A stretch of DNA of 64,000 bases from Flaccisagitta enflata (lineage: Eukaryota), in NCBI GenBank assembly GCA_965153355.1, contig OZ231126.1:14694001-14758000 (forward strand). The letters are read 5' to 3'. The number at the start of each line of letters is the position of its first letter. Within the stretch, counting starts at the first letter, position 1. Shown here one piece after another: positions 40,807 to 54,051 of this stretch. The notes under the pieces were generated by a model. The model was not told the origin of the DNA. It saw nothing but the letters and a program-made list of their open reading frames with translations, and did not search any database. The translations under genes were made by a program, and so were the position numbers.

Positions 40807-40826
40807 AACGTGCAGCAAACGGTTGT

Positions 40827-41030
40827 CTACGAGAGCGAGGCCCTACTGATAAATGAAAAGGCACGGGGTTTTCTGGGTATCATGAATATATTGCTCAGAG
40901 AAGGCCCGGGGGCAGACCGAGAGAGAAGACGTCAGATCGAGCTGCTTTTATACTGGCGAGAGAGGAAGAAGGAGGAGGAAGATGAGGAGAAGGAAGGAGA
41001 AGAGAGAGAGAAGCATCGTCTTCGCGGTTG
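40827..41030 (-). repeat. 3' LTR
   Basis: Matches 53040-53243 except at position 40832/53045; immediately preceded on the minus strand by AGAAAAATGGGGGCG. Confidence 0.93.
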
Positions 41031-41045
41031 CGCCCCCATTTTTCT
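41031..41045 (-). promoter_or_regulatory. Polypurine tract AGAAAAATGGGGGCG
   Basis: Abuts the 3' LTR; an identical 15-mer lies at 43231-43245. Confidence 0.75.
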
Positions 41046-43282
41046 TGAAAAATTTTCCGGAAATGCAGGATTTACGTAAATTTTTCACAACAAAAACAGG
41101 ATTGTAACGAGAGGATAGAGAGGAGAGAGAGGAAAAGAGAGGCAAGTATCTAAGAGCTAAGGATCTGGCACCTTTTCTCAAGATAGTACAATTACAATTA
41201 ATTGCAAATGATAGAAAGCAATTAAAAACGATAATTGAAAGGCACAATTACAAAAGTCAACTTAATGACAGCAGAAAAGTGCAATTACAAATAATCGCAA
41301 ATTACAAAAATGATAGCAGTGATGCAAGATAGTCAATGAACATGATCAATGAGAGAGAGAGAGAGAGAGAGAGAGAGAGAGAGAGAGAGAGAGAGAGAGA
41401 GAGAGAGAGAGAGAGAGAGAGAGAGAGAGAGAGAGAGACAGACAGAGGGACAGAGGGACAGAGAGACAGAGAGACAGACAGCGACAGAGATAAGCAAAGA
41501 CAGGGAGAGAGAGAAAGAAAGAAAGACAGGGACAGAGACAAAGAGAGAGAGAGAGAGAGAGAGAGAGAGAGAGAGAGAGAGAGAGAGAGAGAGAGAGAGA
41601 GAGAGAGAGAGAGAGAGAGACAGAGGGACAGAGGGACAGAGACAGAGAGACAGACAGCAACAGAGATAAGCAAAGACAGGGAGAGAGAGAAAGAAAGAAA
41701 GACAGGGACAGAGACAAAGAGAGAGAGAGAGAGAGAGAGAGAGAGAGAGAGAGAGAGAGAGAGAGAGAGAGAGAGAGAGAGAGAGAGAGAGAGAGAGAGA
41801 AAGAGAGAGAGAGAGAGAGAGAGAGAGAGAGAGAGAGAGAGAGAGAGAGAGAGAGAGAGAGAGAGAGAGAGAGAGAGAGAGAGAGAGAGAGAAAAAAAAA
41901 AGAGAGAGAGAGAGATTAAGCTAAAAATGCAAAAAAAGGGAAAAAATATTGTAAGCACGGGGAGATTCATATGATTATAGTTCGGAGAGTAAAGTTTGAT
42001 GCAATTTTGTGGACGCAAACATTCAAAGATGATTTAAACAAAAAAAAATTCATAAAAAAGTTAGAAAACGACGACAATGACTACGACGATGACGACGACG
42101 ACGACGACGACGACGACGATGAAAACAAAGGAAGAAAAAAAAAGGCGACAAAAAATGATGATGAAAACGACGTAAGCGACGAAATACACACCGTAACACA
42201 AGATAAAAGGAACGAAAATGAGGAGAGAGAGAGAGAGAGAGAGAGAGAGAGAGAGAGAGAGAGAGAGAGAGAGAGAGAGAGAGAGAGAGAGAGAGAGAGA
42301 GAGAGAGAGAGATTATCTAACACATCAAACCTAAAAATGAAAGCCACGGGAAAAATGGACACAATTTAGCTTCTTATTTTTGTTGATGGATTCCTGGAGC
42401 TGCGGCGACGTTGTTATATTCCGAGACATTTGCAAATGTTGGCAATGACGGATTGAAGAGGGAGAGGAATTCCATTGCTGAAACAGTCTACTAAGCAATG
42501 GGCTTCAAAGTTGACGATAACTAGACGGTTTTGAAGGAGGAGAGGGGGGGGGGGAAATTGCATTTTCAAGGAAATAGGGAAAATTGTTAAGATCTATAGC
42601 CAGGATGATTGCGGCATATAGAAAACGATGGCATAGCGTATGATGGCAATGAGAGGATGTCACGAGTAACCGATGGCATTGATGAGAGGGCATTGATTGT
42701 GGCACAGGAAGATCGATGGTACAGAGAATAGGATGGTAATGAGAGGATACCACACTGATGAGAAGGTGCTGATAATATGACAAAAGTATGGATGCACAGG
42801 GAAGATGATGGTACAGAGAAGATGGTGACAATGTGAGGAAGCTATTGATATGATTGCATGGAGGTTTGTGGCACAGAGATGATGGTCAGTTGAAGATGTC
42901 AGAAATTGAAGCAGATGAAATGGGATTATTAAGTGAAGTTAGCATGACATTTCAAAAACGAGAAACTTGGACGTGAAAAGATACGTGGACTTGGAAGAAA
43001 ACATGATTTCTTTGGCAAAAATGAGCAAATTAATAAAAAAAGATCCCCTGTCATTCATTCATAGATCAATCATTCACATACCACTGGTGGCCACCAGTTT
43101 CAAAACGCGTTAAAGGGAATCATAGAACACCAATTGAGCACAAGAAAACGAAATAAATCATGCATCTCCAGACTCATGAATCACTCAAGCATCCATGTTT
43201 CTCTAAAATGAATTACCAGCCAAAACTCCACGCCCCCATTTTTCTATGCAAATGAATGGCAGAAATTGCAATTAATGAAAAC

Positions 43283-52071: not shown

Positions 52072-53021
52072 CCATCGACCGATCTCGCGTAGCTCAGAGT
52101 CAGGTCAAGATTTTTCGAGTGGGGGAAAAAAAATGCGCATTTCGCGTTATGAAGAGGAAGGGAGGAGGAGGAGAAGATTCTTGGAAGTCAACTCCAAACT
52201 GTTTATATTTTCACATCACAAAAATGCGAGGGACTGGGTTTAAACCCGAGGTCAAGATACGCATATGAGGAAAGCGGAGAATTAGGGGGGAAAAATGCGG
52301 AGTGGGTGGAGGACAGACAGAGAGATAGAAAGGGAGAATGGGAGAAAGGGAGGAAGGGAGAAGAGAGAGAGAGAGAGAGAGAGAGAGAGAGAGAGAGAGA
52401 GAGAGAGAGAGAGAGAGAGAGAGAGAGAGAGAGAGAGAGAGAGAGAGAGAGAGAGAGAGAGAGAGAGAGAGAGAGAGAGAGAGAGAGAGAGAGAGAGAGA
52501 GACAGACAGACAGCGAGACAGACAGACAGAGAGAGACCGAGACAGAGCGAGAGACAGAGACAGAGAGAGACAGAGAGAGACAGAGAGATAGAAAGGGAGA
52601 GAGAGAGAGAGAGAGAGAGAGAGAGAGAGAGAGAGAGAGAGAGAGAGAGAGAGAGAGAGAGAGAGAGAGAGACAGAGAGAGATAGAGAGAGACAGACGTT
52701 TTTAGGGGGGTTGTTATGACAATGATGATCAACGAGGGGGTTGTAGTGTGATAGTAGATTGACCAGTGTCGGGGGATATCATACAGAGCAGGAGGGGGAG
52801 TGGGACTATTTAGTATCATAGTCGATGTACCAGTGGCGGGGGGGGGGGGGTGACCACAGGCATTAATGTATCATCTGTTTTTTATTGATATACAAAATGT
52901 TTTGGGGGTAGTAATGAAAAATATTTGGGGGGGGGGTAGTGATAGTCGATTGACTAGTTGTGGGGGAGGGGGTTGTGCCTGAGAATAGAGAGGAGTGGGG
53001 TTCGAGTTTAAAGCTCAAGCT

Positions 53022-53039
53022 CCCCACAGCAAGGCGCCA
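53022..53039 (-). promoter_or_regulatory. Putative primer-binding site TGGCGCCTTGCTGTGGGG
   Basis: Begins with TGG directly after the 5' LTR; imperfect resemblance to the tRNA-Lys(CUU)-type PBS TGGCGCCCAACGTGGGGC. Confidence 0.7.
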
Positions 53040-53243
53040 CTACGTGAGCGAGGCCCTACTGATAAATGAAAAGGCACGGGGTTTTCTGGGTATCATGAAT
53101 ATATTGCTCAGAGAAGGCCCGGGGGCAGACCGAGAGAGAAGACGTCAGATCGAGCTGCTTTTATACTGGCGAGAGAGGAAGAAGGAGGAGGAAGATGAGG
53201 AGAAGGAAGGAGAAGAGAGAGAGAAGCATCGTCTTCGCGGTTG
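53040..53243 (-). repeat. 5' LTR with TATAAAAG box (53158-53165) and AATATA poly(A)-signal variant (53100-53105)
   Basis: Direct repeat of 40827-41030; immediately followed on the minus strand by TGGCGCC. Confidence 0.93.
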
Positions 53244-54051
53244 GTTGTAATGATTATAAGAAATGATAAACAGAATTAGTTACATTTAACAAACAGCCGT
53301 TAAATAAAAGGCGTTTGATCGTGGGTCATTAAGAGCCGATCTGGTGGAGGACCCTAAGGCGGGACTTAGGATGATAATCTGATGGAACTGGACGACCCAA
53401 AGATGACCCAAGATGACCCCGGAGGATCTTTTGTCCCTGATGTCCTTCGATGTCCTACACAAAACGAATAGAAATGTTTTCTCCGTCTCTATTCATCCGG
53501 CTTTGTTTTGTTTTGTTTTGTCTTGTTTTCATTTCATGGCTCAATTTCTTCTTCTTTTTTTTAGTCGCGTGCACGCGACTCTACAGCCCACTCTGTCCGT
53601 CTGTCGGTCGGTCTGTCCGTCCGTCGGTTACACTTTGCTTTTTTTGTCGTTTTATGCCATTTTAAGTCATTTAAAGTTAATTTTAGTCAATTTATATTTA
53701 GTCTCTCAGTCTTTTGGTCTTTTTGTCTTTTAGATTTAGTCTTTTGGTCTAACGGTCTTAACAACCGCACGCGACTGTAAGGTGTAGGCCTTGTTTCTTT
53801 TCTCTTTTGTTTTGTTTTGTTTTGTTTTTTTGTTTTTTTGTTTTTTTTTTCCTTGCTTCGGCCCATAATTGCTGGTGTTTGAACCCTTGATTTATGTTAT
53901 CTATTCATCATTTTATGATCTTGAATTATCGGTTGATAAACTATTGCGCAAAACAAACGGAAGTGGTGGGAAGACTAAAACTTTATCGGCTCACAAGTAT
54001 CGTGGGGTTTTTTTTCTTTAGTTTTTTTTTAGTTTTTTTAGTTTTTTTTTT

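Follow-up and report, generated by a model that had tools for sequence, protein, structure and literature searches.

Introduction

Retrotransposons of the Ty3/Gypsy group (Metaviridae, e.g. yeast Ty3) carry protease, reverse transcriptase (RT), RNase H and integrase in this order between direct long terminal repeats (LTRs), with a single active RNase H, an HHCC integrase, 5-bp target-site duplications, a tRNA-type primer-binding site (PBS) and a polypurine tract (PPT). We report a 12,417-bp LTR retrotransposon of this organisation, on the minus strand (40827-53243) of a 64,000-nucleotide stretch of Flaccisagitta enflata DNA (assembly GCA_965153355.1, contig OZ231126.1, positions 14,694,001 to 14,758,000; hereafter the window, numbered from its first letter). 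Its RT and RNase H are closest to Ty3-like sequences, while its family departs from Ty3/Gypsy in having C...G LTR ends, a YxDN motif in RT, a DD(33)E integrase, an in-frame stop between gag and pol, long N-terminal and RNase H-integrase segments in Pol, and a second PPT. The window copy is probably a structurally complete, recent insertion belonging to an active clade of Ty3/Gypsy-like elements on a long branch, and its family has probably lost an env-like gene secondarily. Judged from sequence, the element would work like Ty3/Gypsy with a gammaretrovirus-style readthrough, for which selection on the junction argues.

Each of these traits has a precedent elsewhere, and in the literature searched we found no description of the combination. 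Troyka elements (Kojima 2025, PMC12440569) also live in aquatic animals, have non-TG/CA ends with outermost C and G and short LTRs, and show, in the portions of that account cited here, neither a tether nor a literal GPF/Y motif. They are described with CG...CG ends (mostly CGCCA...TGGCG), 3-bp duplications, usually one open reading frame (ORF), a CX2CX8-10HX4C knuckle and no env, whereas our clade has CA/CG...AG ends, 5-bp duplications (15/17 LTR pairs), a split ORF, two short knuckles and env-like ORFs in sister elements. Compared by description, ends, duplication length and Gag knuckle rule out Troyka identity.

In-frame gag-pol stops in a conserved context are known from Tj1, which requires its stop (PMC4600332), from Tosmo elements (10.1101/2022.12.06.519325) and from readthrough of the gammaretrovirus type. 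Tj1 and Tosmo are, in these sources, Tf1/sushi chromoviruses with a GAA-TGA-CT context and self-priming, whereas our clade has a tRNA-type PBS. YVDN at the RT active site occurs in the BEL/Pao elements Cer7-12 of C. elegans, and the Sinbad paper leaves open whether such enzymes work (PMC554778); the equivalent Ty3 substitution, D214N, keeps polymerase activity, lowers processivity and is lethal to transposition (PMC5371799). Env-bearing Ty3/Gypsy elements (errantiviruses in the broad sense, Tor, rotifer Vesta/Juno/TelKA, planarian Burro) are reported with env-like third ORFs, a structured bridge between RNase H and integrase, and accessory ORFs such as SGNH hydrolase or RING, features that resemble those of our clade or its surroundings. 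Finally, Odin elements and lokiretroviruses have an RLPQG-type motif and a Lys-like PBS as our clade does, and are described with a degenerate tether plus a second, acquired RNase H (PMC9040795), neither of which was recognised in the clade proteins examined.

Results

A recent insertion in an active family

In element sense the sequence reads 5'-CAACC...CGTAG-3', its 204-bp LTRs differ at one position (window 40832), and it is flanked by a 5-bp duplication, ACAAC. The window copy alone would also permit a 6-bp reading; the length is set at 5 bp because sibling copies assign the first C to the LTR. The gag-pol frame spans 8,628 nt with TGA as its sole internal stop, giving a Gag of 581 aa and a Pol frame of 2,291 codons. 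In the latter Pfam recognises, at low scores throughout, a protease, an RT, an RNase H, the integrase zinc domain and the integrase core, arranged as in Ty3/Gypsy. An earlier sequence-only reading had noted the LTRs identical at 203/204 positions, the duplication and 8.6 kb of gag-pol with one stop, and had concluded that the insertion is recent. The sequence confirms these features, and the single LTR mismatch together with near-identical LTR pairs in siblings bears out the recency. The range given there, 40821..53248, holds the element but takes in the duplication, which lies outside the element proper (Table 1).

A search of the same genome with the RT core gave 427 candidates, of which 150 were scored and 101 matched. 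Among the 150 scored, 25 RTs are 89-100% identical to that of the window, most of them in long open frames; further groups follow at 53-63% and 27-37%, and then ordinary Gypsy-like RTs. For comparison we took the 5' and 3' halves of ten close and ten distant copies, separately, and extended the ten distant ones. LTR pairs are 98.5-100% identical in ten other copies and 94% identical in one, and the ratio of nonsynonymous to synonymous substitution rates (dN/dS) of RT within the close family is 0.03-0.06; the close family is thus under selection and recently active.

These siblings also decide whether the window copy is an ordinary Gypsy element, with its stop, altered motif and odd ends to be put down to mutation or to errors in boundary calling. 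The element is rich in microsatellites, its surroundings are rich in repeats, and one copy by itself cannot separate a 5-bp from a 6-bp duplication. Many insertions that are independent of one another and differ in their flanks, however, show the same traits, as do relatives at 28-64% identity, and this comparison excludes mutation or misplaced boundaries as the explanation. The suggestion that these oddities belong to the lineage and do not reflect decay stands: termini, in-frame stop, YxDN and RNase H-integrase spacer are kept down to about 28% RT identity.

The insertion point borders an AG-rich minisatellite 2.2 kb long whose period is 30 bp (window 38600-40820), and several sibling copies are likewise inserted in AG microsatellites. 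The close family (L050-L069) is a mosaic, with RTs 94-100% identical yet at least four LTR types and differing gag and 3' regions; its PBS switches between a Lys-like form and, in L068, a 12-nt match to host tRNA-Glu(CTC). Short two-LTR derivatives of about 1.6 kb and about 4.5 kb that retain PBS and PPT, at L040/L041 (G000:C5 near 29.26 Mb) and L034/L048 (G000:C7 near 47.66 Mb), are likely non-autonomous members. No solo LTR was recognised among 19 LTR matches.

LTR ends and integrase

All 17 LTR pairs have C...G ends, with AG as the final dinucleotide in 16, and none shows the TG...CA termini that are typical, though not absolute, in Ty3/Gypsy. The non-TG/CA termini first noticed in the window copy are therefore shared by siblings, and an element at 28% RT identity is also C...G-ended (CAGAG...AGAAG). 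A matching 5-bp duplication flanks 15 of the 17 pairs, two of the 15 being uninformative because they lie inside an AG microsatellite. The subfamily L072/L074 speaks against a uniform terminus, as it ends in TG instead of AG and its pair lacks a duplication.

The integrase is DD(33)E in the window family, with a spacing of 34-35 in deeper clade members, and the loop before its catalytic Glu lacks the usual P-x-x-NG pattern. This loop has a role in end binding. The C...G ends test how strictly LTR integrases require a terminal CA. Seven types of non-canonical end are reported in a plant survey, the first T being kept in all (10.1101/137141); since the ends described here begin with C, LTR finders that rely on end motifs would miss the clade.

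The stop between gag and pol

One in-frame stop closes gag in 29 of the 30 located junctions (25 TGA, 4 TAG), so the same-frame gag-UGA-pol junction proposed for the window copy is present there and in its relatives. To this count, 14 short junction stretches had been fetched, and the 7 without a landmark were left out of the 30. From the stop to the first Met the frame is open for 49-62 codons in the window and in 9 of 10 close or diverged copies. Ten aligned sequences of this stretch differ by whole-codon indels and keep a conserved peptide motif, which can still be made out in three metagenome proteins whose RT identity is about 35%, and six diverged pairs give a dN/dS of 0.23-0.48. GCCA stands at +5 to +8 in all eight aligned junctions even where the encoded residues differ, and this constancy suggests a signal at the level of RNA. 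The usual context is stop-GA(T/G/A)TGCCA, with UGA-C in three deeper members. What we find is thus a conserved in-frame stop with selected coding sequence directly 3' of it, as at programmed readthrough sites. Readthrough is the best reading of this junction, which we regard as a candidate site on the strength of that selection, and the surroundings of the stop may represent a new kind of readthrough signal.

Several observations weigh against this. The junction of L136 is frameshifted (the one exception among the 30), and L078 has a break 47 codons 3' of its stop. Folding of the RNA 3' of the stop revealed no stable structure (z -1.1 to +1.9; consensus fold -0.38 kcal/mol), and UGA-G is absent from the favourable contexts listed in the cited part of 10.1101/2022.12.06.519325. 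Transcript data, comprising one polyA run (about 6% sampled) and one metatranscriptome, gave no read depth on gag or the junction (49230-52350) and speak neither for nor against readthrough.

Alternatively, Pol might be made without readthrough, as a separate polyprotein, through a spliced or subgenomic RNA, a non-AUG start or re-initiation after the gag stop. The missing structure would suit such a route, a conserved YAG about 30 nt 3' of the stop could be a splice acceptor, and the 585-aa N-terminal extension of Pol could serve packaging independently of Gag. It would leave unexplained, however, why about 11 diverged subfamilies all keep pol in the gag frame behind exactly one stop, and why TGA and TAG exchange while the downstream context is kept; moreover, the UGA-C of the three deep members is reported as readthrough-friendly (10.1101/2022.12.06.519325). 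We hold separate production of Pol to be improbable and retain readthrough. Selenocysteine insertion (UGA with a tRNA-Sec primer) was also considered and dropped, as the two host tRNA-Sec genes match the PBS only over the shared first bases.

Reverse transcriptase motif and primers

The motif xxDN is found in 21 of the 22 clade RTs (ten from the host genome and 12 metagenome proteins), compared with 3/119 other Gypsy-like, 0/6 BEL and 0/10 retrovirus-like rows, and the first catalytic Asp is present in all 22. The Asn of the YVDN motif noted for the window RT (starting at 46480) is accordingly shared across the clade, to which the YVDD of row P0017 is a counterexample. Because the equivalent D214N blocks transposition of Ty3, the clade must carry compensating changes or tolerate a slower enzyme. 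Fixed for Asn and amplifying genomes of at least 12 kb, it represents a natural experiment on the need for the last Asp of YxDD. A BEL origin of YVDN is ruled out, as the clade RTs stand apart from six BEL rows of the same genome, and YxDN is convergent; the match to Peptidase_A17 is weak and below cut-off, and there is no triple knuckle.

The RLPQGHAASS string (beginning at 46576), singled out in the sequence-only reading as divergent, is present but is no special trait. PQG occurs at this column in 22/107 generic Gypsy-like rows and in only 6/22 clade rows, varying inside the clade, and RLPQG is not diagnostic.

The second PPT lies 40 nt 3' of the pol stop in the window element and is thus post-pol, not inside integrase. 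Simple arithmetic puts the expected number of chance matches of a 15-mer within 12 kb at about 1e-5. All 11 close-family copies keep it exactly, 40-167 nt after pol, while the flanks diverge, and a pattern search did not find it in ten distant 3' halves; this feature, listed among the lineage traits, is real but confined to the close family. Internal PPTs are reported from retroviruses and Ty1. Priming by a tRNA is less clear-cut: the PBS matches host tRNA-Lys(CTT) perfectly over only 7 nt (TGGCGCC), followed by a partial match downstream, and a pattern search for a fully matching tRNA found nothing.

Placement of the clade

The clade received a support of 100 with FastTree (157 rows), 99 under an IQ-TREE mixture model (a quick posterior mean site frequency run on 72 of the 157 rows) and 100 with RT plus RNase H (64 rows). 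It sits on a long stem, apart from six BEL rows and from ten retrovirus-like rows, vertebrate proteins rather than Odin itself, which form a clade of their own. Its RT profile scores 130 bits for Ty3, 126 for cauliflower mosaic virus (CaMV), 66-73 for foamy viruses, 47-53 for murine leukaemia virus and 33 for human immunodeficiency virus; the best PDB matches are Ty3 and CaMV RT, and identity to other Gypsy-like rows over RT and RNase H is 16-27%. The first RNase H has its D-E-D-D residues intact, and PF00075 was absent from the window Pol and four clade proteins and found in two retrovirus-like controls. Trees, profile scores and the single RNase H rule out the retrovirus or Odin link that RLPQG and the Lys-like PBS might suggest.

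On this sequence evidence the element belongs with Ty3/Gypsy-like elements, within their radiation but with no stable sister group, in trees built without named Gypsy references, and by the features tested the clade is not Troyka, Odin, retrovirus or BEL. Two points count against this reading: the sister group differs between trees, and a long stem can reflect fast evolution. One tree groups the clade with a RAPQG group (support 91), a sister relationship absent from the other two. That group (P0070, P0075, P0113, P0144 and relatives) is a separate, well-supported set of Gypsy-like elements with RAPQG/RLPQG motifs and an unrelated long RNase H-integrase spacer.

A search of 1.84 billion representatives returned 16 proteins below 1e-30, after which matches drop to 22-30% identity. 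All 18 closest database relatives that we looked up are metagenome-derived; in JGI metagenomes and IMG/VR, scanning by pattern turned up no relative. It is likely that the clade is unnamed so far, set apart as it is in a comparison without labelled Repbase, GyDB and Dfam sequences; as these references lay outside the comparison, "undescribed" is probable, not proven. The clade could already be catalogued, for instance as a Tor-like group, among the "ancient errantiviruses" (PMC13524379) or within unclassified Repbase Gypsy families. Tor groups are reported as divergent, Gypsy-like and env-bearing, with a weakly supported position (PMC4402516), env-bearing Ty3/Gypsy elements are described as widespread in invertebrates (PMC13524379), and our trees contain no named references. 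Against an existing entry, none of the 18 relatives bears a name, scores drop from more than 175 bits to generic Gypsy at 24-30% identity, and the literature searched, mostly without subscription journals, gave no account of C...G ends, YxDN and an in-frame stop combined. We regard such an entry as possible but on balance doubtful, and favour an unnamed clade.

A more far-reaching reading, in our view rather unlikely, would make the clade a separate old lineage of Troyka-like rank, with an ancestral envelope, a G-joining integrase, a compensated Asp-to-Asn RT, a novel signal for readthrough and, among its members, giant elements with genes for ubiquitin ligase and nucleotide metabolism. The copy in the window would then be a young one in which env was lost and a second primer for the plus strand was gained.

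Env-like and accessory genes of relatives

Beside clade members we found five homologous ORFs of 295-465 aa with a hydrophobic leader, conserved Cys and a C-terminal membrane segment; genome-wide there are 22 matches. Most of the ORFs follow pol, and at two loci of one subfamily they lie about 10 kb upstream of RT, 5' of gag. They are found inside two LTR-bounded sister elements, at 62% and 28% RT identity, and a match lies within 30 kb at 9 of 20 distant loci compared with 0 of 25 close-family loci. The window element, including its 2.2-kb 3' region, has no recognisable env-like ORF or remnant, and so lacks the intact env ORF of errantivirus-like elements. The simplest reading is an env-bearing ancestor with loss of env in the window family, and env-bearing and env-less sisters in one genome provide a clean case of envelope loss. 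The identity of the ORFs as envelopes is weakened by the PF24664 viral fusion glycoprotein match, seen in 2/5 ORFs (E 2e-6 and 8e-4) and below cut-off, and by the lack of a PDB match by sequence. Unlike those of described env-bearing Ty3/Gypsy elements, the ORFs are short, with a partial class III-type match only.

In one deep subclade RING and SGNH-like ORFs and, in one case, a ribonucleotide-reductase ORF adjoin gag-pol. Homologous RING-finger ORFs of 600-705 aa lie just 3' of pol in three distant members. The reductase ORF (L082:973-1980), which is intronless and encodes a full-length small chain (PF00268, E 3e-111), has the env-like ORF of a distant member on one side and its gag on the other. 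Accessory ORFs are reported from rotifer and planarian elements (PMC5408684, PMC6431247), and a reductase small chain beside gag is not mentioned in the cited portions of the accounts of env-bearing elements. LTRs were not found for 8 of 12 distant elements searched, so the accessory ORFs are known only as neighbours, not placed between element ends. Three candidate PBS sites at distant elements were checked and then discarded.

Gag and extra Pol segments

The capsid-like region of Gag gives weak Gag_p30 and Gag_p24_C matches below cut-off, and the two zinc knuckles read CX2CX5HX4C and CX2CX4HX4H. As the sequence-only reading had pointed out, Pol contains long extra segments: about 585 aa, with a poly-Asn microsatellite among them, precede the protease, and a stretch of about 370 aa separates RNase H from integrase. 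The three conserved blocks of the latter spacer are confined to clade members among the proteins collected. Searches of Pfam, the Atlas and folds gave no match for the spacer, and its models, of low to middling confidence (mean predicted local distance difference test 49 and 63), gave no match to RNase H or another fold; because the models are weak, this is no evidence of a new fold. Possibly the spacer corresponds, in split form, to the small bridge domains that PMC13524379 describes.

Proposed replication cycle

RNA would be made from the 5' LTR. Ribosomes would make Gag and halt at the UGA, and a minority would read through to give Gag-Pol, as the selection on the junction suggests. Minus-strand synthesis would be primed by the tRNA of the short match, probably Lys, and an RT with Asn for the last catalytic Asp would copy the genome, its activity being suggested by the many young copies. 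RNase H would leave two identical purine primers, allowing the plus strand to start twice, which might, speculatively, offset low processivity. The ends and the duplication, which are observed, suggest that the DD(33)E integrase, whose end-binding loop is altered, uses DNA that ends in G instead of CA and joins it with a stagger of 5 bp.

Features of the element, its relatives and the window

Table 1 Coordinates of the features of the window element (element order, window positions) and of ORFs beside relatives (locus:positions).
Feature	Position	Strand	Basis or remark
Target-site duplication, 5' side of element	53244..53248	.	Length set by siblings
5' LTR, 204 bp, 5'-CAACC...CGTAG-3'	53040..53243	-	Sequence and sibling comparison
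Putative TATA-like box inside 5' LTR	53158-53165	-	By inspection
PBS, no spacer to LTR	53022..53039	-	TGGCGCC match; probable primer deduced from it
5' leader with AG microsatellites	51905..53021	-	
Short host-repeat-like stretch in leader	~51990-52060	-	Common to four nearest copies
gag, 581 aa: coiled-coil N-part, capsid-like region, two zinc knuckles from 50341	50162..51904	-	
In-frame UGA between gag and pol, candidate readthrough site	50159..50161	-	GCCA at +5 to +8
62 open codons from stop to first AUG, KIxPGFHxEL-type motif	49973..50158	-	dN/dS 0.23-0.48, diverged pairs
Pol N-terminal extension, no function assigned; poly-Asn (AAC) tract ~48880-49220	48401..49972	-	
Aspartic protease, DSG at 48370	48137..48400	-	PF13975, E 4e-7
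RT core; YVDN 46469-46480; first catalytic Asp present	46310..46777	-	Pfam and alignment
RNase H, single, Ty3-type; D-E-D-D intact	45641..46021	-	
RNase H-integrase spacer: three conserved blocks, one His/Cys-rich, between variable low-complexity stretches	44520..45640	-	
Integrase: HHCC zinc domain, DD(33)E core, C-terminal domain without literal GPY/F	43286..44519	-	
Second, internal PPT, 15 nt of terminal PPT	43231..43245	-	
3' non-coding region, 2.2 kb, microsatellites	41047..43230	-	
Terminal PPT adjoining 3' LTR	41031..41046	-	
3' LTR, 204 bp	40827..41030	-	One mismatch to 5' LTR
Target-site duplication, 3' side of element	40822..40826	.	
Env-like ORFs	L121:1788-3032, L123:2430-3824, L135:4526-5878, L137:1-885, L128:5491-6867		
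RING-finger ORFs	L083:6264-8153, L131:5843-7957, L137:4745-6541		
SGNH/GDSL-like ORFs	L129:1792-2610, L130:1995-2936		Weak matches

Elsewhere in the window, a LINE-type (long interspersed nuclear element) non-LTR retrotransposon occupies 191-4014 on the minus strand, with a zinc-finger-like region in ORF1 and an endonuclease-RT frame that is frameshifted near 1190. On the plus strand, 35051-37461 holds two open frames that contain hydrophobic segments and could belong, by their look, to a host gene for a multi-pass membrane protein; they gave no Pfam match, and may resemble XK-related proteins. Inverted-repeat pairs with arms of 170-335 bp that are 86-97% complementary, at 4475-8208, 22110-22725 and 27937-32742, are probably DNA transposons or miniature inverted-repeat transposable elements.

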